A model generated the notes under the pieces. It searched no databases. It saw only the letters and a program-made list of their open reading frames with translations, and was not told where the DNA came from. The translations under genes and the position numbers were made by a program. This document shows, piece after piece, positions 30,731 through 64,000 of a DNA stretch of 64,000 nt. Source of the stretch: an uncultured Acidobacteriota bacterium (GTDB lineage Bacteria > Actinomycetota > Acidimicrobiia > Spongiisociales > ZC4RG35); the NCBI GenBank assembly GCA_963822895.1, contig CAWGJI010000003.1:128379-192378 (forward strand), given 5' to 3'. Each line of letters starts with the position of its first letter. Position 1 is the stretch's first letter.

Positions 30731-31719
30731 GAAACGGGGGCCATCTCGGTGACCGAGTCAGCGATCGTCTGCAGCAACTCCACGACGCGGGGGCCCCAAT
30801 TGGATGCCAGGTATGACTCGAGGGGGATGATTGCCCCACTGGCCACCGCCGTCATCTCATCCCAACCCGGCCTTTCGGCCAGGCTCTCGGGCGTGACTCC
30901 GTAGTCGACGTCGGCGAGAAATATCAGATCGGGGTCTTTGCTGACTATGTACTCGGAGGAGAGCTGGGGAAAGCCGATGCCGTCTGGATCAGCCTCGTCG
31001 GCGATGTTCTCCATCTTCAGCAGTGCATACACCTGGCCGAGGAAGCTGGAAGAGGATGCGGAATAGAGGGTCGAGTCCACCTCGTGATAGAAGGTCAGCC
31101 CATCCGACACGGGGGTCTCGGCCAGGATTCGATCGATGTCGGCCTTCATCGCCATTGCCACCAGGTCTGCCTGATCCGAATGACCGGTGGCGACACCAAG
31201 GGAGTGGATCTGGTCATAGGAGTCCTGGAGGGTCAGAGCCGTGGAGAGAAGCATGCTGGGGACGCCCACAGCAGCCAGACCCGTCTGGAGCTCGCCAGGG
31301 TCGAACGAGATCACGACCAGATCTGGCTCATAGCCGAGGATGGCCTCCAGATTGGGGCTGAAGCCGGAGAGGTCCGTGACCGGAGCCTCCTCGGGGTAGG
31401 TGGAGAACTCGTCGACCGCTATCACCTGATCGCCGGCGCCGATTGCGTAGAGCGTCTCTGTCGCCGTCGAGGACAGCGAGATCACCCGTGTCGGCCTGGC
31501 CTCGATCCTGACTTCCCCTCCTGGGAGGGTCACCACAGCGGGAAATTCCGGGTCGGTCGGCTGCGTCGATCCTGTCGTGGCGGTCTCCACCGTGGTGGTG
31601 GTCAGCGGGCCTGAGACGGTTCCAGTGGTACCGCCCGTGGTGCTCGACGAGTCCTGAGCTCCCGGGCTACACGCGCCCACGGCCAGGGCCAGAGCGAGAA
31701 TCGAAATGATCCCTTTCAT
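30727..31719 (-). CDS. btuF: ABC transporter periplasmic substrate-binding lipoprotein (BtuF/FhuD class)
   Basis: Lipobox LALAVGACS, Ser/Thr-rich linker, class III SBP length; AGGAGG RBS 6 nt upstream of ATG. Confidence 0.8.
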   Translation of the reverse strand: MKGIISILALALAVGACSPGAQDSSSTTGGTTGTVSGPLTTTTVETATTGSTQPTDPEFPAVVTLPGGEVRIEARPTRVISLSSTATETLYAIGAGDQVIAVDEFSTYPEEAPVTDLSGFSPNLEAILGYEPDLVVISFDPGELQTGLAAVGVPSMLLSTALTLQDSYDQIHSLGVATGHSDQADLVAMAMKADIDRILAETPVSDGLTFYHEVDSTLYSASSSSFLGQVYALLKMENIADEADPDGIGFPQLSSEYIVSKDPDLIFLADVDYGVTPESLAERPGWDEMTAVASGAIIPLESYLASNWGPRVVELLQTIADSVTEMAPVS

Positions 31720-45575: not shown

Positions 45576-46204
45576 CCCCGGGAGCTCTCCAAGAGCCGCG
45601 TCACCTCGGTGTCGTTTGTCTGGGTGAAGTCACGATAGAACGACCCGATGGCGAGAAACGGCTCTGGGATGTCCACGACGACCACTTCGTCGGCCACCGA
45701 CTCGAGTGCGGCCAACGTGTCGGCCGGTGCGACCGGCGCGGCGATCACGATCTGTGCCGCTCCCTGTTCCCGGGCTACCTCGGCCGCCGCCCTTATGGTC
45801 GATCCGGTGGCGATCCCGTCGTCGACGATGACGGCGGTGCGACCTTCTAGCGAGATTCGCTGAGCTGCACCCCTGTACAGCGAAACCCTTCGCTCCAACT
45901 CCCGGCGCTCCTTGGCTTCGATTGCCGCCAACTGATGGTCGTTGACTCCGGCAAGGGAAAGCACCCTCGTGTTGAGAATCCGGATGCCACCTTCGCCGAT
46001 GGCGCCCATCGCCAACTCCGGCTGAAAGGGAACACCCAGCTTGCGCACCATGATCACGTCCAACGGGGCAGACAGCCCACGGGCAACTTCGAAGGCAACG
46101 GGAACACCGCCGCGGGGCAATCCGAGCACGACCAGGTCCCCACCACGGAGGTGCTCGAGCCGTTGCGCAAGCGTGCGCCCGGCCTCGGTTCGGTCTCTGA
46201 ACAT
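45572..46204 (-). CDS. phosphoribosyltransferase-fold protein
   Basis: RTEAGRTLAQRL...VVLGLPRGGVPVA and PRPP-binding VIVDDGIATGSTI motif; 4-bp overlap with the hydrolase gene. Confidence 0.75.
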   Translation of the reverse strand: MFRDRTEAGRTLAQRLEHLRGGDLVVLGLPRGGVPVAFEVARGLSAPLDVIMVRKLGVPFQPELAMGAIGEGGIRILNTRVLSLAGVNDHQLAAIEAKERRELERRVSLYRGAAQRISLEGRTAVIVDDGIATGSTIRAAAEVAREQGAAQIVIAAPVAPADTLAALESVADEVVVVDIPEPFLAIGSFYRDFTQTNDTEVTRLLESSRG

Positions 46205-46284
46205 AGGCGCCCTTCATGGCAAGGGTAGGTCGAAGCGCACTTCCCCCCGCGCGGGCCTGAACCATCACCACCTAGTGTCGCGCC

Positions 46285-49110: not shown

Positions 49111-49989
49111 ATGACCACCTTTCAGTCGTGGAAGACCGCCGCCCGCATCCACACCCTTCCGGCGGCGGTGGTCCCCGTTGCCGTGGGCGGGGGCCTGGCC
49201 CGGGGTGATGGAGTCTTCCGCTGGGATGGCTTCCTCCTGGCCCTGATCGCCTCGCTCGCCATCCAGGTGTCCGCCAACTTCGCCAACGACGCCTCGGATG
49301 CCAGGCGGGGTGCCGACACCGACCATCGAATCGGGCCTCCTCGGATGGTGGCCTTGGGCCGTATCACCCCGGGACAGATGTGGGCCGGCGTCGGTCTCAG
49401 CCTTGCAATCGCCCTGGCCGCCGGGATCTGGCTCAGCGTCATCGCCGGGCCTGTGATCCTGGTAGTGGGAATTGTCTCCGTCGTCGCGATGCTCGGATAT
49501 GTCGGCGGCCCATTCCCCTATGGCTATCACGGGCTCGGCGAGGTCTTCGTATTCACCTTCTTTGGAGTTGTGGCGACGGTGGGCAGCCGTTACGTGCACG
49601 ACATGACGGCCCCGGCGGCCGCATGGCTCCTCTCCGTCCCGGTCGGAATGCTGGTAACCGCCATCCTCGTGGCCAACAACCTGCGAGACATCGACACCGA
49701 CCGGGCATCAGGCAAGAGGACACTCGCAGTGATCATGGGCCTCGACCCGACTCGCGTCCTGTTTGCGTCACTGGTCTACGGCGCCTTTCCCCTGATTGCG
49801 GTCTTTGCCTTCCTGGGCTGGACCCCGTTGCCCACTTTGTTCGCCGCACTCCTCGCCCCCTACGCGGTAGGGCCGGTGAAGATCGTCCAACTGAAGAAAG
49901 ACGGGCCGGCATTGATCCGGGCGTTGAAGCTGACCGCACGTCTCCATCTGTGGACCGGCCTCGTCCTGGCGGTGGGTGCGCTGCTCTAG
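49111..49989 (+). CDS. menA: 1,4-dihydroxy-2-naphthoate polyprenyltransferase
   Basis: UbiA-family Asp-rich motifs (NFANDASDARRGADTD, NNLRDIDTDRASGKRTL), 8-9 TM helices. Confidence 0.85.
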   Translation: MTTFQSWKTAARIHTLPAAVVPVAVGGGLARGDGVFRWDGFLLALIASLAIQVSANFANDASDARRGADTDHRIGPPRMVALGRITPGQMWAGVGLSLAIALAAGIWLSVIAGPVILVVGIVSVVAMLGYVGGPFPYGYHGLGEVFVFTFFGVVATVGSRYVHDMTAPAAAWLLSVPVGMLVTAILVANNLRDIDTDRASGKRTLAVIMGLDPTRVLFASLVYGAFPLIAVFAFLGWTPLPTLFAALLAPYAVGPVKIVQLKKDGPALIRALKLTARLHLWTGLVLAVGALL

Positions 49990-50783
49990 TGGTTCGTCGC
50001 TCGAGACTCTGGATTCGACCCCTGGTCCTGACGCTTGCGGCCTTGGTCGCTCTCTCGGCGTGTGGGAGACGTTCCGACTCGGGGGCGTCGCTCGACGGCG
50101 ACTACCGGATGACGTCCGGTGTGGCGGATGGAGAGAGCATCCCACTCCAGGAGGATCATCCCGTCACCCTCACCATCGACGGGGACCACGTCGAGGGCAC
50201 TGCGGCCTGCAACGAGTACGGGGGAACAATCGTGGTGGAGGGCGACCATGTCACCATATCTGACCTGGCCACGACGGAAATGGCCTGTTTTCCCGAGGAG
50301 TCGATGGTCACCGGTCGGATGTTCCTCGCAGCCCTGACCGCCGTGGACACCCTCGAGTCGGACGAGGGCTCGCTGACCCTCATCGGACCAGAAATCCAAC
50401 TTGATCTCCAGCGACAGCCGACCACCCCGACCTCCGGGCTCAATGGGACGGTGTGGGTACTCGACAGTCTGGTGGACGGCGATACCGTTTCCTCCGTCGC
50501 CGGAGCCCGGGCAACGCTGGAGATGTACACGGATGGCTCGATGCTCGGCTCCACCGGTTGTCGCAGCTTTCACGGTGGGTATTCGTTGGACGGCTCCCAG
50601 GTCACGATCAGCGACTTCAAGGCCGAAGGGACATGCGACGCCGTGTCCCGCGACCCCGTGTTACAGCAGGACACCCAGATTGCACAGGTGCTGGGCCACG
50701 ACTTCTCCTATCGGATCGAGGGGAAGACTCTGACCCTCATGTCTCCCGGCGTCTGGGGTCTGATGTACCAGGCGGAGAGCTGA
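49990..50783 (+). CDS. lipoprotein with tandem META (HslJ-like, DUF306) domains
   Basis: GTG start just after menA stop; lipobox LSAC; two repeats of ...DGxY...G...ACNxYGG... / ...TGCRSFHGGYSLDG... META-domain pattern. Confidence 0.6.
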
Positions 50784-51578: not shown

Positions 51579-51807
51579 GGGGGGACGACCCCCCTTGTAT
51601 CCCCCCGCTCGACCGCCGCCAACGCGGCAGACCTGAACTGGGCGAGAAACTCTGGACTCACCGGCATGCCCGGAGCCTAAAGCGGATTCGATACGCACCC
51701 GTCTGACCGGCGAGCCCAAAGACCGGGCGATGTTTCGCCGTTCCTGGTGTTAGCCGGGAGATCACCCGGGTAAGTTCACTATGTAGGAGATCTAGGAGAG
51801 AAGAGTC

Positions 51808-54429
51808 TTGCCGCACTTATACGACTTCTCGGAATCAGATGGGACCGACAAGGACCTGTTGGGTGGGAAAGGAGCCGGTCTCGCTCGCATGACCGGCCTC
51901 GGGCTTCCCGTCCCTCCGGGATTCACCATCACCACGGAGGTTTGCCGATCGGCAATGGAGAACGGGTCCCTTCCGGATGATCTCTGGGATGAAGTCGCCT
52001 CCGCCGTGGATCGTCTCGAGAAGGAGACGGGACGGGCCTTTGGGTCGGGACCGGTGCCTCTGCTGCTCTCGGTCCGATCCGGAGCGAAGATCTCGATGCC
52101 GGGGATGATGGACACGGTCCTCAACCTGGGCATCAACGACACCGTCACCAAGGCACTCACCGAGTGGTCCGGCGACCCCCACTTCGCCTGGGATGCCCAT
52201 CGCAGATTTGTCCAGATGTACGCCAACGTGGTGCTGGCGATCGACGAGCACCGATTCCAGGAGGTCCTCGGCGATCTCAGGTCCAAGAGGGGTACTACGG
52301 ACGACTCGAAATTGACCACCGAGGATCTCGAAGAGGCAACCCGGCGCTTCAGGGAGATCGTCGAGAAGGAAAGGCCCGGGATGCTCCCCGACGAGCCGAT
52401 GGCCCAGTTGAAGGGGGCGATCACCGCAGTCTTCGAATCCTGGAACACGAAACGCGCCGTCGAATACCGTCGCATCAACCGCATACCCGATGACCTCGGG
52501 ACTGCCGCCAACGTGCAGATGATGGTCTTCGGGGATCTCGGAGAGGACTCGGGGACCGGTGTCTGCTTCACACGCGACCCTTCCACCGGAGCGAGAGATC
52601 CCTATGGGGACTATCTCCCTCGGGCCCAAGGGGAAGATGTCGTGGCGGGAATCCGAAACACGATGACCCTGGACGAGCTCGGTGAGATCCACCCCGATTG
52701 CCATCAGCAGCTGCTCGGCATCATGGACGGGCTGGAACAGCACTACCGGGACATGTGCGACATCGAGTTCACCATCGAGAAGGGTGTCCTCTACATCCTC
52801 CAGACCAGGGCGGGGAAGCGCTCCGCAGCGTCGGCGGTGCGGCTCGCCGTGGCAATGGTCAAGGAGGGCCTGATCGACGAGAAGATCGCATTGACCCGAG
52901 TCGAACCGGCCGCTTTGGAGCAATTGCATCGTCCCCGCGTGGCCGACCACGTTGAGCTGTCGTCGGCAATCGGGCGCGGTGTCGCCGCCTCTCCCGGGGC
53001 GGCGACCGGGACCGTCGTCTTCGACTCCGAGACGGCGGTAGCCAAGGCACGCGATGGAGAGGACGTCATCCTGGTCCGCCCTGAGACCACGCCGGACGAC
53101 ATCCACGGCATGGCGGCCTCGATGGGGATCCTCACTAGCCAGGGTGGGAAGACCTCGCATGCGGCGGTGGTCGCCCGGGGGATGGGCAAGCCGGCAGTGA
53201 CCGGGGTGGCCGACCTCCTGGTCGACGTCGAGGCGGGGATTGCACACGCATCCGACCACGATCTCCGAGAAGGCGACTTGATCACCATCGACGGGACGAC
53301 CGGTGCGGTGTATGCGGGCACCGTCGACGTGGTCAACCCGGAGGAGCTCCCGGAGTTGCATGAGCTGCTGCAATGGGCTGATCAGTTCAGGCGTCTCGGG
53401 ATCAGGGCCAATGCCGACACCGCCGAAGATGCCACACTCGCCCGTCACCGGGGAGCGGAGGGCATCGGGCTGGCCCGGACCGAGCACATGTTCCTCGGTG
53501 AGCGTCTGGAGATCGTCCAACGGGTGATTTTGTCCACCGACCCCGAGCAGCGAGCCAAGGCGCTAGACGACTTGGAGCGACAGCAGATCGGCGACTTCGA
53601 GTCGCTGCTCGAGGCAATGGACGGACTGCCTGTGGTGATCCGGCTCCTCGACCCCCCGCTCCATGAGTTCCTTCCCTCCCGTCTCGAGCTCGAGCACCAG
53701 ATGTTGAGACGGGTCCGTGCCGGCAGACCCATCGACGACCTCCAATCGATGTCTGATCAGGTGGCCCGGTGGGAGGAGGACAACCCGATGCTCGGGCTGC
53801 GTGGAGTCCGGCTCGGGCTCATGCTCAAAGATCTCTACCGAATGCAGGCCCGGGCGGCCACCACCGCTTTGACGCGAAGGATTCAGGCCGGGGGCAACCC
53901 CCATCTCGAGATCATGATCCCCCTGGTCGCCACGGCCGAAGAGCTGTTGCGGATGCGTCGAGTGATAGAACAGGAGATCGTCGAATCCGTAGCAGGGTCC
54001 GGTGTCGACCTCGACATCGAGATAGGCACCATGATCGAGCTTCCGCGTGCGGCCCTGACCGCCGGGGAGATCGCTAAGGTCGCCGACTTCTTCTCCTTCG
54101 GGACGAATGACCTCACCCAGATGACCTACGGGCTCAGCCGTGACGATGCCGAGGGCCTCTTTCTCCGGGACTATCTGGAGCAGGGCATCTTGACCTCCGA
54201 CCCGTTCCAGACCATCGACATCGCCGGCGTCGGACGTCTGGTGCGCGTGGCCTCACGTGAGGGCAAGGAGGCAAACCCCGGCCTCACCCTCGGGTTGTGC
54301 GGCGAGCACGGTGGCGATCCCGAAACGATCGCCTTCGTCGATGGGCTCGGCCTCGACTACGTATCGTGCAGCCCGCCGAGAATCGAGGGAGCCCGGCTGG
54401 CGGCGGCGCAGGCGGCCCTGGCCGGCTGA
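51808..54429 (+). CDS. ppdK: pyruvate, phosphate dikinase
   Basis: Full-length PPDK: N-terminal GGKGAGLARM ATP-grasp, central phospho-His GGKTSHAAVVARGMG, C-terminal PEP-utilising TIM barrel GLCGE. Confidence 0.92.
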   Translation: MPHLYDFSESDGTDKDLLGGKGAGLARMTGLGLPVPPGFTITTEVCRSAMENGSLPDDLWDEVASAVDRLEKETGRAFGSGPVPLLLSVRSGAKISMPGMMDTVLNLGINDTVTKALTEWSGDPHFAWDAHRRFVQMYANVVLAIDEHRFQEVLGDLRSKRGTTDDSKLTTEDLEEATRRFREIVEKERPGMLPDEPMAQLKGAITAVFESWNTKRAVEYRRINRIPDDLGTAANVQMMVFGDLGEDSGTGVCFTRDPSTGARDPYGDYLPRAQGEDVVAGIRNTMTLDELGEIHPDCHQQLLGIMDGLEQHYRDMCDIEFTIEKGVLYILQTRAGKRSAASAVRLAVAMVKEGLIDEKIALTRVEPAALEQLHRPRVADHVELSSAIGRGVAASPGAATGTVVFDSETAVAKARDGEDVILVRPETTPDDIHGMAASMGILTSQGGKTSHAAVVARGMGKPAVTGVADLLVDVEAGIAHASDHDLREGDLITIDGTTGAVYAGTVDVVNPEELPELHELLQWADQFRRLGIRANADTAEDATLARHRGAEGIGLARTEHMFLGERLEIVQRVILSTDPEQRAKALDDLERQQIGDFESLLEAMDGLPVVIRLLDPPLHEFLPSRLELEHQMLRRVRAGRPIDDLQSMSDQVARWEEDNPMLGLRGVRLGLMLKDLYRMQARAATTALTRRIQAGGNPHLEIMIPLVATAEELLRMRRVIEQEIVESVAGSGVDLDIEIGTMIELPRAALTAGEIAKVADFFSFGTNDLTQMTYGLSRDDAEGLFLRDYLEQGILTSDPFQTIDIAGVGRLVRVASREGKEANPGLTLGLCGEHGGDPETIAFVDGLGLDYVSCSPPRIEGARLAAAQAALAG

Positions 54430-55140
54430 TCAAACGACCGCATCAACCAGGTCGGCGACACCTTCACCGCTGGTGGCGGTCGTGACCAGGATCGGGGCCT
54501 TTCCCGCGGCCACCGTCTCGGCGAGAGCCCGTTTGACGACATCCACTCCGGGACGATCCCCTTTGTTGATGACGAACACATCCGTGATCTCGGTCACGCC
54601 GGCTTTGTCCGCCTGTATCTGGTCACCCCAACCAGGTGCGAGCACCAGGACCACCTGATCGACCAAGTCCATCACCTCGACCTCGGACTGTCCCACCCCG
54701 ACGGTCTCCACCAGGACCAGGTCGAAACCGGCCCTGGAAAGAAGGCCTATCACGGGTGCGGCTGATTCGGCGAGGCCGCCCAGGTGGCCACGGCTCGCCA
54801 TGGAACGCACATAAACGCCGGGATCATCCACGTGGTCCTGCATCCGTATCCGATCTCCGAGGAGGGCGCCGCCCGTAACAGGACTGCTGGGGTCGACGGC
54901 GAGCACGGCCACCGAGAGCCCGCGCGAGCGCAACCTGGAGATCATCGCGCCTACCAATGTGGACTTGCCGGCGCCCGGGGGCCCGGTGATGCCGACCCGT
55001 CGGGCCGGCTGGATGGTCTCGGGAATCTCGGAGAGCCAGGGCCCGACGGCAGGGTCGCGGTCCTCGATCATCGTGATGAGCCGAGCCAGGGCGCGTCGGT
55101 CCCCCGACAGGGCGCGCTCAACGATCTCGGACCCACTCAT
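54430..55140 (-). CDS. meaB: methylmalonyl-CoA mutase-associated G-protein MeaB/ArgK (short form)
   Basis: GITGPPGAGKSTL P-loop, VETVGVGQSE, NKGD; ends directly after the G domain, abutting the ppdK stop. Confidence 0.72.
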   Translation of the reverse strand: MSGSEIVERALSGDRRALARLITMIEDRDPAVGPWLSEIPETIQPARRVGITGPPGAGKSTLVGAMISRLRSRGLSVAVLAVDPSSPVTGGALLGDRIRMQDHVDDPGVYVRSMASRGHLGGLAESAAPVIGLLSRAGFDLVLVETVGVGQSEVEVMDLVDQVVLVLAPGWGDQIQADKAGVTEITDVFVINKGDRPGVDVVKRALAETVAAGKAPILVTTATSGEGVADLVDAVV

Positions 55141-55171
55141 GTGGACAGGTTAGAAAGGGACCGAGCCCCGC

Positions 55172-55507
55172 TCAGAGGACCGGAAGCTCTATCCCACCGG
55201 GGATCGCGGTGTCATCCATGCCTGGTGCGTCCGCACTGGCATTGACTTCCTCAACACCAGGCACTCGATCCTTGAGGATTCGCTCGATTCCGGCCTTCAA
55301 AGTCATCATCGACAGAGGGCATCCCCCGCAGGCTCCGACCATCTGGATGTTGACCGTGTTCCCCTCGGTCCCCAGCAAGACGAGATCGCCCCCGTCCGCC
55401 TGCACGGCCGGTCGGATGTATTCCAGGGTCTCCCGGAGCTTTGCTTCGTCTATGTCTGTGTCAGTCACCACGCTGCTGGCAATGGTGACCGGTGTTGTCT
55501 CTGGCAT
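55172..55507 (-). CDS. NifU-like (Nfu) Fe-S cluster assembly protein
   Basis: GACGGCPLS CxxC motif in Nfu C-terminal domain context. Confidence 0.75.
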   Translation of the reverse strand: MPETTPVTIASSVVTDTDIDEAKLRETLEYIRPAVQADGGDLVLLGTEGNTVNIQMVGACGGCPLSMMTLKAGIERILKDRVPGVEEVNASADAPGMDDTAIPGGIELPVL

Positions 55508-55582
55508 CTGCTTTGAAAACCCTCGTGATGGCGTGGATGTTCCGAATTCTACGTGATCAGGTGATTACGGCCGAATGAGCGG

Positions 55583-56833
55583 CTACTGGCCCTCGACACG
55601 GGCACCGAGGGCGGAAAGACGGCCGGAGAAGTCCTCATAACCCCTGTCGATGTGCTCGGCATGACTGACCTCGGTAGTGCCCTCGGCGCGAAGCCCGGCC
55701 AGGACCAGGGCGGCGCCGGCCCGGATGTCCGGGGCCAGGACCGGGCATCCCGAGAGTCGATCGACACCACGGATGATGGCATGCTGCGCCTCGGTCGAGA
55801 TGTCCGCCCCCATGCGGGCCAGCTCCCCGATATATCGGAAGCGGGCGTCGTAGAGGTTCTCGGTGATCACCGACGTGCCATTGGCTACCGAGAGCAGGGC
55901 CACCATCTGCGGGTGCATGTCGGTGTGGAATCCCGGGAACGGCAGTGTGGCGAAGTCGACCGGTGCGGGTCTTTCGGGACCGCGAACCCTGAGCCAGCCC
56001 TCGCCACGATCCACCTCGCAACCGGTCTGCTCCAATTTCGCCAACTCCATTCGCAAATGCTCGGTGACACAACCGGTCACCGTCACGTCACCGGCAGTGA
56101 TCGCGGCTGCGGCGGCGAAGGTGCCCGCTTCCAGGCGGTCCGGCAAGACCTGATGTTGGACGGGCTCGAGGCGATCCACCCCCTCAATGGTGATCAAGGA
56201 GCTTCCCGCACCGGTGATCACCGCCCCCATCTCTGTCAGCTGTTTGACCAGATCCTGTATCTCCGGCTCACGTGCGGCATTGACGATCACGGTCTCGCCT
56301 TCGGCCAGCACCCCGGCAAAGAGCAGATTCTCGGTGGCTCCGACCGACGGGAACGGAAGCTCCACCTCGGTCCCCTTGAATCGCCCGTCCACCCGGCCGA
56401 CCAGCTCACCGTGCACCAGATCGAACTCGGCGCCCATGGCCTCGAGGCCATGGAGATGGAAGTCGATGGGCCGGGCCCCGAGGTCGTCGCCGCCGGGAAG
56501 TGCCACCCTCGCCTCGCCGCACCTGGCGAGTAGCGGCCCCAGCACCACGATCGACGCCCTCATCTGACGCACCAGCTCGATGGGCGCCACGGGGTCGAGC
56601 TCGTCGGGCACCACCAGCCAGATCTCGTGATCGACCCGTTCCACATGACAGCCCATGTGCTCGAGGACACGGCACATCAGATCCACATCGAGGATCGAGG
56701 GCACATTGCTGAGACTGTGGCGACCCGGTGCCAGCAATGCCGACACCATTTCCTTGAGGACGGCGTTCTTGGCCCCGAGAACACCGACCGTCCCCTGCAG
56801 CCGCGCTCCTCCCTCGACGATGAGCTTGGACAT
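55583..56833 (-). CDS. murA: UDP-N-acetylglucosamine 1-carboxyvinyltransferase
   Basis: MSKLIVEGGARLQGTV N-terminus, active-site loop region, full EPSP-synthase-like fold length. Confidence 0.9.
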   Translation of the reverse strand: MSKLIVEGGARLQGTVGVLGAKNAVLKEMVSALLAPGRHSLSNVPSILDVDLMCRVLEHMGCHVERVDHEIWLVVPDELDPVAPIELVRQMRASIVVLGPLLARCGEARVALPGGDDLGARPIDFHLHGLEAMGAEFDLVHGELVGRVDGRFKGTEVELPFPSVGATENLLFAGVLAEGETVIVNAAREPEIQDLVKQLTEMGAVITGAGSSLITIEGVDRLEPVQHQVLPDRLEAGTFAAAAAITAGDVTVTGCVTEHLRMELAKLEQTGCEVDRGEGWLRVRGPERPAPVDFATLPFPGFHTDMHPQMVALLSVANGTSVITENLYDARFRYIGELARMGADISTEAQHAIIRGVDRLSGCPVLAPDIRAGAALVLAGLRAEGTTEVSHAEHIDRGYEDFSGRLSALGARVEGQ

Positions 56834-56928
56834 CCAGGCGAATGTAGTGAGGCCCCGGCCCAACGCCGTGTCTCTACCGGGGCCTTCAACTGCGTGTCAC
56901 CAGGCTGCACAGCTACCCTGCCCGCCAG

Positions 56929-57369
56929 ATGAGAATCGCACTCGGAGCAGATCATGCCGGCTTTCCCCTCAAGGAGCACCTCTCCAGCTGGCTCGCCGAG
57001 GCGGGTCATGCCGTCTACGACCTGGGGACCCATTCCACCGACCCGGTCGACTACCCCGACTACGCCGCCGCAGTGGCACAGGCGGTACTCGACGGCCGCG
57101 CCGACCGCGGCATCGTGGTCTGCGGATCCGGGGCAGGCGCCGGAATCGCCGCCAACAAGCTCAACGGGATCCGGGCGTCAGTGGCGCACGACACTTACAC
57201 GGCGCATCAAATGGTCGAGCACGACGATGTCAACATCCTCTGTCTCGGTTCGAGAGTGATTGGCAATGCCCTGGCCGAAGAGCTGGTAACGGTGTTTCTC
57301 GAGGCGCGCTTCACCCGCGAGGAGCGTCACGTGAGACGTCTGGAGAAGATCCGGTCCTTCGAGAGCTGA
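56929..57369 (+). CDS. rpiB: ribose-5-phosphate isomerase B
   Basis: [12 protein letters not shown]..., [15 protein letters not shown], ~146 aa. Confidence 0.9.
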
Positions 57370-57370
57370 G

Positions 57371-58027
57371 TCAGGGGCCGATGCTGGCCTGGGCGATGGC
57401 GGCGAGTGCATTCAGCCCGTCCACCGGAATCTCACCGGACACCCGCTGAAGATTCTGGTTGTTCCCGTCGAGTACCACCCAGAATGGGGTTCCTGCCATC
57501 CCGAAGCTCCCGGCCACGGTCCCGGAGGCATCGTCCATGATCACCGGCGCCGTCCATCCCTCACGCTCCAGCCAATCCTGAGGCGGCCAGTTTGGCCGCA
57601 AAGGATCGGTCGAAGTGGCGACCGAGATCAACTCCACGTTGTCAGGGAGGTTGCCGGCGTCCACCCAACTCTGGACGACCGGGACCTCGGCCTGGCAATG
57701 AGGGCACCAGTGGGCGAGGAAGATCACGATCTTTGGGGTTCCGTCAGGCTCGATCGAAACCGGGTTCCCATTCCAATCTGCCCCGATCGCAGTCGGCGCC
57801 GGCAGACCGATGGCCGGGTCGGCCGCTGCAGAGTTGTAGACGGGCAGGGCGTTCCCGGAGACGCTCGGGGTTCCATAACCGACGCTCTCGTCCAGTGGCT
57901 GCTCGCCTGCGATCGATATGGCCAGCGCCACGATCGCGGCCAGGCCGACGACACCGCCGAGGATCCACCAAAGCGTCGAATACGACCGCTTCGCCGGCCC
58001 GACTCCTGACTTTGCTCGTTGTGTCAT
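57371..58027 (-). CDS. membrane-anchored TlpA-like thioredoxin (WCPHC)
   Basis: N-terminal TM, FLAHWCPHCQAEVP CxxC thioredoxin motif; 4-bp overlap with DsbB-like gene. Confidence 0.75.
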   Translation of the reverse strand: MTQRAKSGVGPAKRSYSTLWWILGGVVGLAAIVALAISIAGEQPLDESVGYGTPSVSGNALPVYNSAAADPAIGLPAPTAIGADWNGNPVSIEPDGTPKIVIFLAHWCPHCQAEVPVVQSWVDAGNLPDNVELISVATSTDPLRPNWPPQDWLEREGWTAPVIMDDASGTVAGSFGMAGTPFWVVLDGNNQNLQRVSGEIPVDGLNALAAIAQASIGP

Positions 58028-58551
58028 CTCTCAGTTTTCGTGTAGAGGGCGAGTAGGACGGAGATCACGATAAACCCGGCGCCGGCCATAAACGGTATGG
58101 AGATGAACCCGAACACCTCGACATACCGGGCCGAACAAGGCACCGTCCCACAGGAACCACCGCCCTCGAGAGCAGGTAAAGCCTGGATCAAATAGTGCCA
58201 AATGGATATGGCCAGACCACCGAGGGCAAGGGGGAGGGCGTAGAACTTGACCTGTCTGTCCCTTCGGATCGCCCCGACCAACAGGATGATCGCCATCGGG
58301 TACATGGCGATCCGCTGAAACCAGCAAAGGCGGCAGGGCTCGAACCCGATCACCTCCGAATAGAACAGGGAGCCCGCCGTCGAGACGAGTGCCACGAGCC
58401 ATGCCAGCCAGATCGCCCGATCCCCGAGAAGGTGAGTCGCGTCTCGGCCCCTCACCAGACGGTATACGAGCAACCCGATCGCAGCCACGAGGGCGACGAG
58501 CGAAAGAATGGCAACCAGGGCGTTGTACTGCCGAATGGCCTGTGATGACAT
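58024..58551 (-). CDS. disulfide bond formation protein B (BdbC/DsbB family)
   Basis: 4 TM helices with two Cys pairs (CRLCW and SCGTVPC) characteristic of actinobacterial/Bacillus-type DsbB; start at Met 58551. Confidence 0.7.
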   Translation of the reverse strand: MSSQAIRQYNALVAILSLVALVAAIGLLVYRLVRGRDATHLLGDRAIWLAWLVALVSTAGSLFYSEVIGFEPCRLCWFQRIAMYPMAIILLVGAIRRDRQVKFYALPLALGGLAISIWHYLIQALPALEGGGSCGTVPCSARYVEVFGFISIPFMAGAGFIVISVLLALYTKTER

Positions 58552-58563
58552 CCGCTTCCTCCG

Positions 58564-58609
58564 TAGTCCCGACCGGATTCGAACCGGCGTTTCCGGCTTG
58601 AAAGGCCGG
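58564..58609 (-). other. tRNA-like 3' fragment (anticodon-arm plus T-arm remnant, UUC/Glu-like), possible integration-site scar
   Basis: Minus strand reads ccggc-CTTTCAA-gccgg aaac gccgg-TTCGAAT-ccggt cgggact-a: a canonical T-loop GGTTCGAATCC and a TTC anticodon stem-loop. No matching D-arm or 5' acceptor strand, so not an intact tRNA. Confidence 0.3.
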
Positions 58610-59289
58610 CCCAGGACGAAACGAAGCCTAACGACGATCAACGCCAATAGCCGAGAAATAGCGGTTGACCACGGCATATGCAAAGAGATGAGTTATCGCT
58701 ACTTCGCGGCGGCTTGCGTCGATTTCCACTCCCATGCGGCCCAGGAGCGGCCCAGCGGCCCAGCGGCCCAAGGGCCAGATTCCGTTTGCCGAGCGACGAC
58801 TTTCGCACGTTGGCAATCGTCGTAAAGGTCGCGGATCATTCCTGTTCGAAGCCCGGTGCAGCATTGGCCAAGCTTGTGAGGCCGTTAGTGAACTACTTGG
58901 AGCGCGAAATCTCTCCCTCGGTGGCTCTTGACCACGCAGTGTGGTGAACGTACAGTCCCAACATCGGGCGAGCTGGAGGATGGAGTCCTTGCAATGGTGC
59001 TCAGCTTGCCTCGAAGGCGAAGGTACTGGAGTTTCGTGCGAAGAAGCTCCTGGCATCTCGCCATCGCCTCTCGTGGTAGGAGTTGGCGATGGTGATCACT
59101 CACGCGACGCTCTTCGAAAGCGAAGTCGCTTTTCGAAGTCGGGACGAGATGCTCCACGACATTGCCGTAGCTCACATCTCGTATCGACTAGGTCGACAGG
59201 AGTTTGGCGGTGGCATCCGCGACCACGGCCAATACCAGACATTGACATCCCACGCTCCCAGGACCCCAGCGTGACTTTGGGAAAAGTAC

Positions 59290-60165
59290 ATGCCTGCGTA
59301 TGGCGGACGGATCGATTGTCAATTAGGACCCACCCCTACAACGGCACTGAAGGAGGTACCAGCAGTGGTGGCTGAGACGCTCGCATCGATTGAAGCAACT
59401 AGGAATTCCCTGGTCGTCCAGATGCTCGACGGAGGGAGCGTCTCCCTTGAGATCCCCTGGACGATAGGCCCTGCAACGGTCACGGGGACCATTCGAATGT
59501 CGTCCGGAGAGGAACGAGCTCTTCTCATGAGCTCACCGCCCACGGCCGAAGACTTAGCACGAGACCCAGTCGTCAGTACGGGCATGGAATTCGTCGAGAG
59601 CTATGGATTGAGCGGTGGCCAACTCCGACTTGGGTCGGGCGGCCAGCCTAAGTCGGCCGAACACGAAGTGTCGTATGAGCGGGCAAGCGACGGAACTGTG
59701 AGGGAAAAGCTCGTTCATATGGCTCTATGGGATGGAGACAGCTTCACTCTCCACACCTTCCAGTATGGCGGCGAAGTCGACAGCCTTCGAAGCTTCTACG
59801 AGGCGATGCGAATAGAGGAATCACCAACCGGCGTACGGGTGGCCCCCCGTACCGCCACCAACCTCGCTTTCGTGCAGGGACCGTGGACGATTGTCGACCT
59901 ACCAGGCATCGGAGCGCTTGAAATAGCACAGATGACAGCCTGGCGGCAAAAAGAGGTGCCTACATACGAGGGCACGCCTGTTGTGTCAGGGGAGCTATAT
60001 GTTTCCCGACGTGATGACGGCTCTCACCGCGCGTACTACGTCATCGTCAACGAGACAACATTCGCCACTTTCGTCCCATACCCTGGGTCAGACGAAACTA
60101 GGGTGGCGGCAGTTCTCGAGACCTCTCAGATCTTCTGGAGCCTAGGTGCTAGGGAAGCTGAATGA
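59290..60165 (+). CDS. hypothetical protein (first gene of lower-GC island)
   Basis: 291-aa ORF with A/T-richer codon third positions than the flanking core; no recognised motif. Confidence 0.4.
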   Translation: MPAYGGRIDCQLGPTPTTALKEVPAVVAETLASIEATRNSLVVQMLDGGSVSLEIPWTIGPATVTGTIRMSSGEERALLMSSPPTAEDLARDPVVSTGMEFVESYGLSGGQLRLGSGGQPKSAEHEVSYERASDGTVREKLVHMALWDGDSFTLHTFQYGGEVDSLRSFYEAMRIEESPTGVRVAPRTATNLAFVQGPWTIVDLPGIGALEIAQMTAWRQKEVPTYEGTPVVSGELYVSRRDDGSHRAYYVIVNETTFATFVPYPGSDETRVAAVLETSQIFWSLGAREAE

Positions 60166-60730
60166 TCGGTCACGAGAGATGAGGGGCGGACTTACAAGCG
60201 CCGGAATCGTGTTCGGAGTGTTGGGCGGTGCTGGCGCTATGCACGCTCGCCGGCTCGAGTCACTCGTGTCGACGCTTGGGGCACACCGCCTATTGACTCG
60301 ACCCCTCGTCCGCCCAGTAGCTGGCTTTGTCGCTCTCACGGAGATTTCGCTCGGGATCTTGGGCCTGGCCGGGCTTGCCTTTGTTGGCGGCCAACTACTT
60401 GCCGTAGCCGCTCTTCTTTCAGCTGCCCTGTACGCGTCCTATACCGTCTATCTCATAGTCCTCGTCAGGATCCGGCCAGGCTCGAACTGTGGTTGCAATC
60501 AGAGCGACCTGCCAGCGAACTGGGCTCATGTCTTGCGCTCAGCAGTCTTGTGCGTTCTGGCCGTGGCGGCGGCACGCTCGATCATTCCAATCTCGAACAC
60601 TGGCTTGGAGACTTCAGAGCTGATTCTCACGTTATGTGTAATAGCAGGCGGAGTGGCTTTGGTGTGGATTAGTCCGGAAGTCGTGGGGTTGAGGAAGACT
60701 ATAAGACAAAGACAAGGAGTACTGCGGTGA
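60146..60730 (+). CDS. MauE/DoxX-family redox-associated membrane protein
   Basis: ~4 TM helices and conserved loop motif RPGSNCGCNQSD, similar to the DIDCGCFG-type CGC motif of MauE family proteins; overlaps the next gene by 4 bp. Confidence 0.55.
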   Translation: MLGKLNDRSREMRGGLTSAGIVFGVLGGAGAMHARRLESLVSTLGAHRLLTRPLVRPVAGFVALTEISLGILGLAGLAFVGGQLLAVAALLSAALYASYTVYLIVLVRIRPGSNCGCNQSDLPANWAHVLRSAVLCVLAVAAARSIIPISNTGLETSELILTLCVIAGGVALVWISPEVVGLRKTIRQRQGVLR

Positions 60731-61224
60731 GCGCTTTGACCGCTGCTGTTGTCCTGGCATGGGTGGCCATTCTTATCCTGGCTTTGGCGATTAGTGGACT
60801 GACGCGGGCGGTGGGTCGCCTGGCTACAGGAGCTGTAGGGGCGCCCGCAGCTCATCCTCTGATTGGTAGCCAGGCACCACCAATCCCGGCCCTTGGGCCC
60901 TGGTCTGAACCGACGGTGATGGTGTTCGTGGATCCCACATGCATCGTATGCCGCGAAAGAATCCAAGACATCAAGGAGATTCACTCAGGTGAGACGAATT
61001 GGATCCTTGTGACCACGGATCCCAGCGAAACCTTCTCAGACTTGGAGTTGAACGGCCTGCGACTCATCCGGGTCGAAAGCCCTTACGTCACCTTTTTTGG
61101 CGCTTACTCGAAGCCATTCGGGGTTGTGATTGACAGCAATGGACTCATTGTCGCGGCCTCGGCCTTAGGAAACAGGAAGATGCTCACCGACCTTGTGCCA
61201 ATGGGTTCTAGAGAAGGTAGCTGA
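60727..61224 (+). CDS. membrane-anchored thioredoxin-like thiol-disulfide oxidoreductase (MauD-like)
   Basis: N-terminal TM anchor, MVFVDPTCIVCRE CxxC active site in a thioredoxin-fold context, ~165 aa. Confidence 0.6.
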   Translation: MSALTAAVVLAWVAILILALAISGLTRAVGRLATGAVGAPAAHPLIGSQAPPIPALGPWSEPTVMVFVDPTCIVCRERIQDIKEIHSGETNWILVTTDPSETFSDLELNGLRLIRVESPYVTFFGAYSKPFGVVIDSNGLIVAASALGNRKMLTDLVPMGSREGS

Positions 61225-61229
61225 ACAGG

Positions 61230-61799
61230 ATGCTTGATCTCGCAACGGTTGTTGACTGGGACGATAAGCCGCACGGCGCCAATCGGCGGAGCCTACACGT
61301 CCACCACCCGCATGAGCCGATGCGGCCCACTCGTCGGATGTTCCTCAAGGGGGCCATGGCCGCTTCCGCCGGGTTCGCCCTTGCTGCGATGGGGGCTTTT
61401 CCCTTCGTCCAACGCGCACGGGCAGACGCCCCGCCCGGTGGCTGGTTGATCTGGACCAATGGAGGAACGAACGACTGCGGCGGTCTGGACTCGTGGGTCA
61501 ATGATGACGAGTGCGATGGCTGCAACAACAAGCTGTGGTGTTGCTGCTCGAGCGGGTACCACAAGGGCCCCGCTTTCGGTTGCAACTACGACTTCCGCCC
61601 CGATCTCTGCAAGTCCGGCGGCTACGACGGGTGGACCTGGAAGATGACCGTTTGCTGCCTGACCGGCGCAACCACCTGTCATAAGAATCGTGTCTGGCGA
61701 TGCTCGGATGGCAAGTACCGGTCGAGTTGTTCGAGCGGATGGACGGATTCGATCTGTCGGTACATTACGTCATCCGGCACCACCTGTTCCGGGTGCTAG
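61230..61799 (+). CDS. TAT-signal secreted Cys/Trp-rich small protein (16 Cys, 8 Trp in ~125-aa mature part), MauA-position gene
   Basis: Twin-arginine motif TRRMFLKGAMAASAGFALAAMGA with AxA cleavage (ARA/DAP); mature region has WCCC, VCC and many spaced Cys/Trp; sits directly after the MauE/MauD-like pair. Confidence 0.6.
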   Translation: MLDLATVVDWDDKPHGANRRSLHVHHPHEPMRPTRRMFLKGAMAASAGFALAAMGAFPFVQRARADAPPGGWLIWTNGGTNDCGGLDSWVNDDECDGCNNKLWCCCSSGYHKGPAFGCNYDFRPDLCKSGGYDGWTWKMTVCCLTGATTCHKNRVWRCSDGKYRSSCSSGWTDSICRYITSSGTTCSGC

Positions 61800-61972
61800 G
61801 GGCGAGGGCGGCCCTCGAGGGAAGGTGGGCTGCAATCTGGGTCGCGATTGGGGCCATCCTTGCTCTATCGCTTCTGTTAGTCGTCCGTGGATGGGGCTCC
61901 ACCCTTGTCGCCCCTCTAGTGCTTTTCACGGCAGGTGCGGGCGCCGGGGTGTCCCTGTCAGGTTCGACCTGA
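61793..61972 (+). CDS. possible small two-TM membrane protein
   Basis: GTG start just before the stop of the Cys-rich gene; hydrophobic IWVAIGAILALSLLLVV and LVAPLVLFTAGAGAGV; the longer ATG 61700 version would overlap the previous gene by 100 nt. Confidence 0.25.
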   Translation: MLGARAALEGRWAAIWVAIGAILALSLLLVVRGWGSTLVAPLVLFTAGAGAGVSLSGST

Positions 61973-62041
61973 ACTTACAACAGCGCTGTAGCGCTAATCC
62001 CGGCCGGGAGCCGTGGGTCGAGACCGAGGCGTAACGCAGCG

Positions 62042-62554
62042 TTGTATCTCGTCGGGTCGGTCGTTGGGGCTGTGATCATACAAATCGCTTTGCAGGGCGT
62101 GAGCATGCTCAGTGTTTGGGTTTCAAGGGACCTGAGGGCCGGAGCCTTTCTGGCGATCGGAGTGTCCGCACTGCTGGTGGATACCGGTGTCGCTCCGTGG
62201 CCCATTCCGAGCCCAAGACGGCAGGTACCTCCCCATATTTTCAGCGCCGGGCATCGACGGGCCGGCTTCCTCTTCGGACTGCAGATGGGTGCAGGTATGG
62301 TGACCTACATCACGGCCGCAGCTCCGTACACCATTTGGGTGGCCACAGGATTGGGGCTGACTTCTTTAACGAATTCGTTGGCTCTTGGCATTGGGTTTGG
62401 TTTTGGTCGTGGGCTGCTTCCGTTTGCACGCCTCGGATTGCATCGCGATGACGGTTGGATGGAGGCTCTCGAGGTTTTTGCGGCCCGAGCCCGATGGGCC
62501 GGGTCTAGCTTCGCACTCGTGGGCACAACGGTTGCTGTCTTATTGATCGGTTAG
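62042..62554 (+). CDS. hypothetical integral membrane protein
   Basis: 170 aa, ~5 hydrophobic helices, no Cys, no recognised motif. Confidence 0.45.
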   Translation: MYLVGSVVGAVIIQIALQGVSMLSVWVSRDLRAGAFLAIGVSALLVDTGVAPWPIPSPRRQVPPHIFSAGHRRAGFLFGLQMGAGMVTYITAAAPYTIWVATGLGLTSLTNSLALGIGFGFGRGLLPFARLGLHRDDGWMEALEVFAARARWAGSSFALVGTTVAVLLIG

Positions 62555-63595
62555 CGCGGCGACATCTTGATTGGCAACAGCAATGCTCCGAGCCACCGCC
62601 GAGGCGGAGCCATAGGTCGTGTCATGTATGGACACATCGACGCGTCTTGCAGATTCGTCAATACACTTGACCACGTATGTTCCACCAGCAGACTCGCTTT
62701 CTGCAGCCATATCTTGGCAGCCGGCCGGGAAAAGCGTGAGGGTGAAGCCGGGATGCGAGACCTCGATGCTCATCGGCGGGAACTCGCTCGGAAAGGCAAG
62801 GCGTAACGGGGAAGCGACGTCGATCGTTGGCCATCCCGACGGGTCTTCTGAGACATTGACACTTTCGAGCCAAGAAGTCACCTGGTCCCGGGAGAAGGTC
62901 TGCGGTGTGTAAAGCCACATGAGCCAGCCGTCGGTCTCAAAGACCAAGTAGCTGCCAGCCGGCGAAGTTCTCTTAACATAGATCCAAGCTGTCTTAATGC
63001 CGTCTGACACCGTATCCATGAGCTCCGACTCATCAAACCACGTGGTCGGTTCCCCTTGTACGAACACGAAGTCGCTCCCAAGAGACGCCCGATCTGGAGG
63101 AGCGACGATCCAACCCTGCAGCTTCGCGGTGCTGTCTTCAATCGGCAACTCCATCGGAAGACTCCAGGTGATTACTTCATCATCCAGATAGCGAACGGTC
63201 AGTAGATTCGAACCAGTACCCTGTGATGTGGCGAACTCCAACGTTGGTGGTTGCTCCCGGGGCCATAGTGAGCCCTGAGAACTCACCCCAGAATCTAAGG
63301 ATATCTCGTTTGAAATACCATCGTCTAATGGGCCTCGATTGGTCAAAAGTGCGGGCAGGGCTCCGAGCACCAATACGAGTACGGCTGAAGCAACTGCCAC
63401 CGTCCACCCAGCAGTGGGCCTCCATCGTGGAGCTGCGGGAGCCGGACTCCTAAGTGATGAATCGTCCAGATCGAGATGGAGACCTATTTGCTCAGACACA
63501 CGGGTGAAGGTTGCAGCGCCTTCTGCGCCATATCTCCATCGATTCGCCTCTTTTGTGGATACAGGGTTTTGGTTCCGTAAGTCACGCAATGTCAT
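62540..63595 (-). CDS. putative anti-sigma factor (cytoplasmic N-term, single TM, extracytoplasmic domain)
   Basis: Lies 26 nt downstream of the ECF sigma gene on the same strand; N-terminal ~70 aa then TM helix WTVAVASAVLVLVLGALPALL then a ~270-aa extracellular domain. Start at ATG 63595 (the longer ORF to 63730 would overlap the sigma gene). Confidence 0.5.
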   Translation of the reverse strand: MTLRDLRNQNPVSTKEANRWRYGAEGAATFTRVSEQIGLHLDLDDSSLRSPAPAAPRWRPTAGWTVAVASAVLVLVLGALPALLTNRGPLDDGISNEISLDSGVSSQGSLWPREQPPTLEFATSQGTGSNLLTVRYLDDEVITWSLPMELPIEDSTAKLQGWIVAPPDRASLGSDFVFVQGEPTTWFDESELMDTVSDGIKTAWIYVKRTSPAGSYLVFETDGWLMWLYTPQTFSRDQVTSWLESVNVSEDPSGWPTIDVASPLRLAFPSEFPPMSIEVSHPGFTLTLFPAGCQDMAAESESAGGTYVVKCIDESARRVDVSIHDTTYGSASAVARSIAVANQDVAALTDQ

Positions 63596-63620
63596 TCCTC
63601 GCTCCCTATCTCCTGCTTCT

Positions 63621-64000
63621 TCAGGATCTCCTCGAATCGCCTTTAGCCCTTGATAAACGCATACGGGCGGCGGAAGGCGTGGTGCCGAGCACGTCGGCCA
63701 CTTCACGACGGGTAAGGCCCTCCCATCCAACCAGAAGGAGGATCTCGCGCTCCTCCGAATCCATTACTGCTAGAGCGTCTCTAAATTCGAGTGATAGCTC
63801 ATTCTCCGACGAAGCAACGGCGCTTGGGGTCTCGGCACCGATGCGCTCCAGCAGCCTTCGCCAGCGATCGTCGTTCCGGTAGCTTTGTCGCACGACATTG
63901 CCGGCGACCCCGTACAGCCATGGCAACGCTTTGTCTGGGACGTCGTCGCGACGCCTCCAGGCAACCAAGAAGGTGTCCGCTACGACATCTTCGACACAAC
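63621..64000 (-). CDS. ECF-subfamily RNA polymerase sigma-70 factor (5' end beyond window)
   Basis: Region 2.4-like PWLYGVAGNVVRQ and region 4 HTH LLVGWEGLTRREVADVLGTTPSAARMRLSRA; N-terminal region 2 lies past position 64000. Confidence 0.75.
   Translation of the reverse strand, partial: CVEDVVADTFLVAWRRRDDVPDKALPWLYGVAGNVVRQSYRNDDRWRRLLERIGAETPSAVASSENELSLEFRDALAVMDSEEREILLLVGWEGLTRREVADVLGTTPSAARMRLSRAKGDSRRS

Follow-up and report, generated by a model that had tools for sequence, protein, structure and literature searches.

The DNA analysed here, a stretch of 64,000 nucleotides from an uncultured Acidimicrobiia bacterium (the whole stretch is called the window), raises the question of why its composition changes at a tRNA-like fragment next to the dsbB-tlpA gene pair, and what kind of DNA lies beyond that fragment. 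The first-pass annotation had read the region as a genomic island that was acquired horizontally by insertion at the 3′ end of a tRNA gene and that carries a cassette for MauE, MauD-like and Cys-rich proteins. In our analysis, positions 58565-64000 and the DNA beyond the window end very probably form the dsbB-proximal part of an integrative element located in a tRNA-Glu(UUC) gene. It is probably an integrative mobilizable element (IME) with a length of some 10-12 kb. The mechanism is textbook; what is new here is a tRNA-Glu(UUC)-specific, probably mobilizable element with an uncharacterised disulfide-bond cassette. To our knowledge, mobile elements of Acidimicrobiia have been little described.

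The boundary is marked by 46 nt at 58565-58610, which read GCCGGCCTTTCAAGCCGGAAACGCCGGTTCGAATCCGGTCGGGACT on the minus strand and comprise an anticodon arm (anticodon UUC), a variable loop, a T arm and a 3′ acceptor strand, with neither a D arm nor a CCA end. Over its whole length this scar matches tRNA-Glu(UUC) genes of related genomes (positions 27-72) exactly, and it lies on the same strand as the tRNA in those relatives, so that its earlier description as a 46-nt remnant lacking the D arm was accurate. A 12-nt leader that includes GGAGG, together with the discriminator-position base 58564, separates it from the dsbB start at 58551, the ATG being 13 nt from the end of the remnant. ARAGORN made no tRNA call across the whole window, and hence none at this site, which agrees with the claim that the remnant is an insertion scar and not an intact tRNA gene. 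Note that the Rfam tRNA model did match 58564-58623, its 35.5 bits exceeding the gathering score of 29, but only in an alignment that drops the D arm and lets the flanking CGUUUCG form 6 of 7 acceptor pairs with the 3′ acceptor strand. We rejected the idea that this 60-nt match is a complete tRNA without a D arm, or what remains of an entire tRNA copy, because similarity between the 5′ flank and the tRNA 5′ half was at chance level (p ~ 0.23); a tRNA-5′-like flank was likewise not seen in the corresponding arms of the related loci L023, L063 and L058. The fragment at 58565-58610 is not a tRNA gene, and it does not make up a complete cloverleaf.

The state of the site before insertion is visible in relatives. 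A scan with the DsbB protein, using one genome per species, gave 80 loci, all from Acidimicrobiia-like metagenome-assembled genomes (MAGs), and 81 loci were compared. In 79 of these 81, tlpA adjoins dsbB, and rpiB, murA and nifU follow downstream of the pair in most of them. In at least 24 loci, a spacer of 7-16 nt (typically ~13 nt), which includes the Shine-Dalgarno sequence, lies between the dsbB start codon and an intact tRNA-Glu(UUC) upstream on the same strand; this arrangement is the ancestral, empty site. It can be seen at L025:9912-10003 and in at least 23 other loci (e.g., L028, L037 and L054). At other loci the tRNA is 2-8 kb distant from dsbB.

A comparison with the MAG locus L003, whose DsbB is 87% identical to that of the window, gave a direct view of the transfer. 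L003 aligns with window positions 51765-61903, where its contig ends. In 250-nt bins the core was 74-84% identical, whereas the bins over 58750-61749 were 99.6-100% identical, and the whole of 58611-61903 was ~99.9% identical with ~4 mismatches in 3.3 kb. The switch of identity lies inside the scar: the two sequences are the same through GCCGGCCTTTCAAGCCGGAAACGCC, between the anticodon arm and the T stem, and beyond it L003 has the T stem CCAG/CTGG where the window has CCGG/CCGG (a compensated pair), followed by its own 3′ trailer. Only 25 nt are common across the L003 junction. A switch at this place is expected when the same element has recombined with two different host tRNAs, and a crossover between anticodon stem and T stem would fit the expected pattern of Islander class A described below. 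Among the 81 dsbB loci, the island genes were found in one (L003); they were not found in L002, the closest host, nor in the other 78 loci. Synteny is thus not conserved in related genomes, at least 24 of which have an empty site. The contrast between near-identical islands and divergent flanks is the signature of recent horizontal transfer between two Acidimicrobiia species, as judged from sequence identity, and the horizontal acquisition proposed earlier is borne out by it. Such a transfer, with essentially zero divergence, would have taken place between uncultured soil Acidimicrobiia that are distinct at species level.

The compositional shift is quantitatively real. GC content was 58.4% at 58611-64000 versus 63.8% at 1-58563, and the former value lies below all 1064 core windows of equal size (core minimum 61.6%, z = -6.2); in 500-nt bins, island and core also differed in GC (Mann-Whitney p = 5e-7). 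The GC drop past 58.65 kb had thus been placed and oriented correctly in the first-pass annotation and does coincide with the tRNA remnant, whereas its value of 48-58%, taken from 60-nt samples, was overstated. Of the six complete island genes, five have a GC content at third codon positions (GC3) of 0.57-0.64, as does the partial sigma factor gene, against 0.75 ± 0.065 in the core, so that the A/T-richer third positions noted before are confirmed with one exception, the Cys-rich gene, whose GC3 of 0.75 is core-like. Atypical composition and patchy distribution are both features looked for in a tRNA gene (tDNA)-integrated island (Islander), and both were observed here. Isolated core open reading frames (ORFs) at 45630-46271, 28433-30839 and 49380-50783 have low GC3 too (0.50-0.65); note that these were chosen by a crude longest-ORF rule and that some may be wrong-frame calls.

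Related elements occupy the same site in other genomes. L023 and L063 contain complete elements of 7.7 kb and 5.6 kb, bounded by perfect direct repeats of 52 nt and 47 nt, respectively, that correspond to the 3′ part of the tRNA; one repeat lies in an intact tRNA and the other copy 15-18 nt from dsbB. Each encodes a tyrosine recombinase (Pfam Phage_integrase, 6e-18 and 2e-20; phrog_1), whose gene runs at its 3′ end into the intact tRNA encoded on the other strand. Further bounded elements were found in L016, L096, L103 and L117/L118. Displaced fragments starting at tRNA position 22-32 are present in L002, L003, L016, L018, L047, L058, L059, L065 and L067, and displaced tRNA fragments also occur in the metagenome loci L096, L103 and L117/L118, and L013, L015 and L030 have degenerate tRNA remnants, a sign of earlier insertions. 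GC is lower in the elements of L023, L063, L016 and L002 than in their own flanks. The tRNA-Glu(UUC)-dsbB site is a recurrent target of one integrase family, and these loci document a hot spot together with a tRNA-Glu-specific integrase family with swappable cargo.

Membership of the window element in this family can be seen in its terminal arm. The ~190 nt next to the scar align with the element ends in L002, L003, L018, L023, L058 and L063, and the alignment holds an invariant TGGGCCGC-N4-TGGGCCGC block. In the window, four tandem GCGGCCCA(G/A) repeats at 58736-58776 take in this N4-spaced block, and GGGCCGC-N4-GGGCCGC also lies near both ends of the complete L023 and L063 elements, ~60 nt inside the tRNA-proximal end. 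We infer from this placement that the GCGGCCCA repeats are candidate arm-type binding sites for integrase or excisionase (Xis). L002, with 93% DsbB identity, has the same scar and arm (138/145 nt identical), and its cargo beyond the equivalent of window position 58754 (L002:3446-6493) encodes an HlyD/ABC/FtsX (MacAB-like) exporter. The exchange of cargo in L002 occurs immediately inside the GGGCCGC repeats. In L063, the cargo consists of BNR and HTH_66 proteins.

That the island extends past the window end, as first proposed, was confirmed with L084, a Logan contig reached via the sigma factor protein P0147. L084 overlaps window positions 63249-64000 at 99.6% identity and runs 2078 nt further at 59% GC, continuing the sigma gene and the backbone. 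Besides the full 172-aa extracytoplasmic function (ECF) sigma factor, it encodes a 77-aa HTH_17/MerR-type protein (36.5 bits; excisionase-type fold), another protein of 140 aa that matches HTH_17 more weakly, and two small ORFs. The contig stops within a longer ORF, of which L084:1-414 covers the last 137 codons; this ORF shares 68% identity with the one next to the L023 integrase and 61% with the C-terminus of a 1051-aa protein of L088. The latter, a metagenome contig found with the integrase P0029, has the same backbone order as L084: an ECF sigma factor, HTH_17 (84% identical), HTH_17-like (72%), orf70 (91%) and orf80 (89%). Next come the 1051-aa protein, in which a TrwC relaxase (3e-68) is joined to an AAA_30/UvrD-type helicase (8e-43), then an Xis-like HTH_17 protein of 69 aa, and finally the integrase, whose gene overlaps at its end with a tRNA-Glu(UUC). 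A search beyond 64 kb for an integrase, suggested in the first-pass annotation, thus yielded excisionase-type HTH_17 genes and a relaxase C-terminus through L084 and stopped short of the integrase of the window copy. The HTH_17 genes, the relaxase C-terminus and the integrase/tRNA arrangement are those of near-identical or syntenic relatives, and the window copy would share them; by extrapolation from L088, its element would end near 68-70.5 kb, which gives the estimated length of ~10-12 kb.

The integrases themselves also point to the tRNA-Glu site. The gene for P0029 shares a 353,259-bp contig with sigma and anti-sigma genes whose products are 98-99% identical to those of the window. Reading tRNA-Glu in antisense from the acceptor end up to the TAG of the D arm gives QSRPDSNRRFRLERPAS, the 17 residues with which P0029 ends. 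Since this C-terminus is encoded by the tRNA gene, the protein C-terminus alone reveals the integration site. Integrase ORFs running antisense through tRNA-Glu were observed for P0026, P0028, P0029, P0030 and P0146, at L063:4230-4360 and at L088:8599-8655, the tRNA-encoded C-terminus being 17 residues (QSRPDSNRRFRLERPAS) or up to ~58 where the D arm has no TAG. The integrase gene abuts tRNA-Glu in nearly all of the 20 metagenome loci tested.

These data are consistent with the following course of events. The attachment site attP of the element would copy the tRNA sequence from its anticodon stem through its 3′ end, and a tyrosine integrase would recombine it with the host tRNA gene by a crossover within tRNA positions 27-52, from where the anticodon stem begins up to the T stem. 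An intact tRNA would thereby be regenerated at the far end, beyond the window, and the original 3′ part of the host gene (58565-58610) would be left stranded beside dsbB. Outward from dsbB, the order would then be the scar, the arm with the GCGGCCCA repeats, the cargo operon, the anti-sigma-like gene and the ECF sigma gene, followed past the window by two HTH_17 genes, small ORFs, a TrwC-type relaxase/helicase, Xis, Int (integrase) and an intact tRNA-Glu. Of these, the integrase and the tRNA of the window copy are predicted from the relatives, and mobilisation would presumably depend on the conjugation system of a helper. The features of the element and its flanks are listed in Table 1.

Table 1. 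Coordinates of the element features and flanking host genes in the window.
Feature	Position	Strand	Basis or remark
Displaced 3′ fragment of tRNA-Glu(UUC), positions 27-72	58565..58610	-	att (attachment site) core, dsbB-proximal element end
Conserved terminal arm of element family	58611..58800		~190 nt; alignment with six other loci
Hypothetical protein, 266 aa from GTG after AAGGAGG	59365..60165	+	First cargo-operon gene; GC3 0.62
MauE-family membrane protein, CGC motif	60146..60730	+	Pfam MauE 5.1e-14; GC3 0.61
MauD-like membrane-anchored thioredoxin-fold protein (CIVC)	60727..61224	+	Weak TIGR02661 match
Cys-rich secreted protein, 189 aa, 16 Cys, twin-arginine signal RRMFLKG (RRxFLK)	61230..61799	+	Sequence
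Polytopic membrane protein, 170 aa, no Cys	62042..62554	+	No family match
Single-pass membrane protein, putative anti-sigma	62540..63595	-	Directly downstream of sigma gene; no family match
ECF sigma factor, off window end (172 aa in L084)	63621..64000	-	Sigma70_r4_2 2.2e-11
Host tlpA-like thiol:disulfide oxidoreductase (WCPHC)	57371..58027	-	Pfam Redoxin/AhpC-TSA; flanking core gene
Host dsbB, BdbC-type disulfide oxidoreductase	58024..58551	-	Pfam DsbB 1.6e-14, NCBIfam PRK03113 6.5e-43; flanking core gene

The arrangement was compared with the tDNA islands of Islander (Hudson, Lau & Williams 2015, PMC4383910), where insertion by a tyrosine integrase disrupts a tRNA gene that the island itself makes whole again, the ends being marked by the regenerated tRNA and by a displaced 3′ fragment in direct orientation; attP class A, to which 2083 of the Islander islands belong, is centred on the anticodon (PMC4383910). 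The window scar likewise is a displaced tRNA fragment in target-gene orientation that marks one end, and it starts at the anticodon stem as in class A. The window differs in containing only the displaced-fragment end, with the integrase and intact tRNA of its copy predicted from relatives, and in its host, an uncultured Acidimicrobiia MAG. The intact tRNA at the other end was observed in L023, L063, L016, L096, L103 and L117/L118, and the integrase beside the intact tRNA in L023, L063 and L088. The label IME, as defined by Guedon et al. 2017 (PMC5704250), describes small elements with their own integration/excision module and a relaxase but no mating-pore genes, and the element family is probably alike in these respects and is also alike in its modular cargo, namely the MauE cassette in the window, the ABC exporter in L002, and the BNR and HTH_66 proteins in L063. 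IME is probably the best label because no domains for replication initiation (Rep), FtsK/SpoIIIE-type transfer (Tra), coupling proteins, type IV secretion systems (T4SS) or phage structures were found in the tested proteins of the window part, L084, L088, L023 and L063. Unlike in characterised IMEs, the relaxase here is seen only as a 137-aa C-terminal fragment on a near-identical contig; no origin of transfer (oriT) was identified for the window element and no helper element is known.

The same domain content bears on whether the element could instead be self-transmissible, that is, an actinomycete integrative and conjugative element (AICE) or an integrative and conjugative element (ICE) of the T4SS type. 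The AICEs pSAM2, SLP1 and pMEA300 (te Poele et al. 2008, PMC2440964) are actinobacterial, lie in the 3′ part of tRNA genes, measure ~10-17 kb and have an int-xis module beside the tRNA, and the window element resembles them in host, integration site, int/xis-type module and a length of ~10-12 kb akin to that of pSAM2 (10.9 kb; PMC2440964); moreover, ~4 kb of the window copy lie outside the available sequence. However, Rep, the FtsK/SpoIIIE-type TraB of AICEs and T4SS domains were not found in these tested proteins, the family has a TrwC (MOBF) relaxase instead, and the stretch of L088 equivalent to the uncovered part is wholly filled by relaxase, Xis and Int, so that we consider self-transmissibility improbable. 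A prophage remnant or phage satellite would account for the phrog_1 integrases, the HTH_17/excisionase-type genes and the small size. No island protein besides the integrases matched PHROGs, though, there are no capsid, terminase or primase genes, and the backbone gene is a TrwC relaxase, which makes this origin extremely unlikely. The AICE, prophage and satellite readings were all rejected on domain content. We likewise see almost no chance that 58564-58623 is a functional D-arm-less tRNA-like RNA, e.g., a processing signal in the dsbB leader: the Rfam score, the six acceptor pairs and a position 12 nt short of dsbB, occupied in relatives by a genuine and presumably co-transcribed tRNA, would suit such a role, but ARAGORN was negative, the 5′ flank is at chance and not shared by the other arms, and the remnants decay in the older insertions of L013, L015 and L030.

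Two further accounts would dispense with recent transfer altogether. If the region were a vertically inherited, lineage-specific stretch beside a decayed tRNA pseudogene, old decayed insertions such as those in L013, L015 and L030 and a frameshifted sigma gene in the window would be natural, yet the island is far closer to L003 than the flanks are, is not in the closest host L002 and is shifted in composition; this account is very improbable. Equally little credit is due to an assembly or binning artefact that joined the island of one organism to the dsbB of another via shared tRNA sequence. The L003 contig does stop partway through the island, the scar is where the Logan contig L001 breaks off, and no more than those 25 nt are common across the junction. 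Against this, seven assemblies, made independently and from different hosts, have the arm-scar-dsbB junction, the position of the switch is exactly the one that site-specific recombination would give, and a 25-nt overlap should be too short to mislead assemblers with k of 99-141 or long reads. We therefore retain an integrative element in tRNA-Glu(UUC), noting several points that weigh against it. The available sequence stops short of the far end of the window copy with its integrase and intact tRNA-Glu, and neither an excised circle nor an empty site was seen for the window's own species. The near-identity to L003 covers only the part up to 61903, where that contig stops inside the island. 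The window-copy relaxase is seen as its last 137 residues only, and it may be truncated, as is its homologue in L023. Conjugation machinery was not found in the window part and tested relatives, ~4 kb of the window copy lying outside. Finally, the scar is 2 nt shorter than that of L003 and the sigma gene is frameshifted, and the window copy may thus already be decaying.

The cargo was as first described, with MauE, MauD-like, Cys-rich and further membrane proteins and an ECF sigma factor. Five proteins are encoded by the plus-strand operon at 59365-62554. The first, the 266-aa hypothetical protein, has an exact copy on record in 3 contigs and no match in Pfam, NCBIfam or PHROG. The MauD-like protein matches TIGR02661 at 1.7e-7 with 30.9 bits versus a cutoff of 188.6, and Thioredoxin_2 at E = 0.27. 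The Cys-rich protein has no Pfam match and belongs to a family with 56 representatives among 1.84 billion clusters, all of ~170-200 aa, in which RR, Cys, YDGWxW and WRCHDG are invariant; its AlphaFold (AF2) model has a predicted local distance difference test score (pLDDT) of 80.5, above 87 in the mature part, and gave no Foldseek match in the Protein Data Bank (PDB). The 170-aa membrane protein is 29% identical (E = 4.6e-12) to the membrane protein of an analogous cassette at L023:5968-6567. In fact, the L023 element, whose host DsbB has 65% identity, carries a divergent set of MauE, a CSSC protein, a 12-Cys twin-arginine translocation (Tat) protein and a membrane protein, the Tat protein being 28% identical (E = 3.5e-5) to the Cys-rich protein of the window, which indicates that the cassette is a recurrent cargo of the element family. 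The cassette is accessory, recently transferred DNA and not part of the core oxidative folding of the host.

The CXC motif is the active site of MauE, and MauE can replace DsbB in E. coli (bioRxiv 10.64898/2026.03.05.709764). The juxtaposition of MauE (CGC), a membrane-anchored CxxC protein and a Cys-rich exported twin-arginine protein parallels MauE and MauD maturing the disulfide-rich MauA, and by this analogy the Cys-rich protein would presumably be the client of MauE and the MauD-like protein. The cassette differs from a mau cluster in several ways: MauA and MauB had no match even at E <= 5, MauE alone clears its Pfam cutoff, the MauD-like protein is far below the equivalog cutoff, neither a Pfam family nor a PDB fold was matched by the Cys-rich protein, and the cassette is on a mobile element. 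The most economical reading of the cargo would be a portable oxidative-folding pair serving a Cys-rich client. We tentatively extend this, as a possibility that we would call doubtful at present, to a mobile 'foldase plus client' module, in which a quinone-linked MauE oxidase and its CxxC partner would mature the Cys-rich Tat protein. The element's own ECF sigma/anti-sigma pair would activate this module, and mobilizable elements specific for tRNA-Glu would carry it from one Acidimicrobiia species to another. If so, the Cys-rich protein would be a new kind of secreted effector (e.g., a toxin, metal-binding or redox protein) that needs a portable disulfide pathway.

For the regulatory pair, the anti-sigma role of the 62540..63595 product is suggested by gene order; in L084 the sigma stop overlaps the start of the putative anti-sigma gene. 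This protein has cluster relatives on 3 other contigs, and a metagenome scan with it gave no match. Relative to L084 and L085, the window sigma gene has a 1-nt deletion near 63644, which alters the last ~10 residues, so that the C-terminus reads ...RLSRAKGDSRRS in place of ...RLSRARRRFEEILKKQEIGSEE and the stop codon no longer overlaps the start of the gene downstream; this may be either a sequencing indel or a real inactivating mutation. The upstream regions of the sigma gene and the cassette shared 34 bipartite words versus 32.8 expected, which gives no evidence of a common ECF-type bipartite promoter.

The host oxidative-folding pair does sit at the island edge, as stated in the first-pass annotation. 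Its position there follows from the attachment site adjoining dsbB and is not evidence of functional coupling; the neighbouring 'candidate system', a recently transferred accessory cassette, should be read differently in this light. In empty sites, dsbB-tlpA is presumably co-transcribed with, and processed from, the tRNA precursor, since there is no room for a promoter between tRNA and dsbB, and insertion would presumably place the whole element between dsbB-tlpA and the tRNA promoter. No sigma-70-type promoter for dsbB was found on the minus strand inside the terminal arm. A motif, GTCGTTAG(G/T)CTCCGT, was observed ~45-80 nt upstream of dsbB in L013, L015, L024, L030 and L035, in loci with fresh scars and in loci with decayed or no recognisable scars alike, and GTCGTTAG(G/T)CT is conserved ~80 nt upstream of dsbB in several loci; it may be a candidate outward-facing -10 region supplied by the element end.

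Two minor observations concern the backbone and its integrases. A conserved 80-aa ORF (L088:3563-3808 and L084:427-669; 89% identical) is divergent from the relaxase gene and has a weak MqsA-antitoxin-like match (E = 0.0016), and it may encode a small regulator or antitoxin of the backbone. Distant integrases (67-70% identity) at L094:9270-9436 and L098:950-1118 lie beside tRNA-Glu(CUC)-tRNA-Gln(CUG) pairs and not beside tRNA-Glu(UUC), which suggests a target shift within the integrase family.

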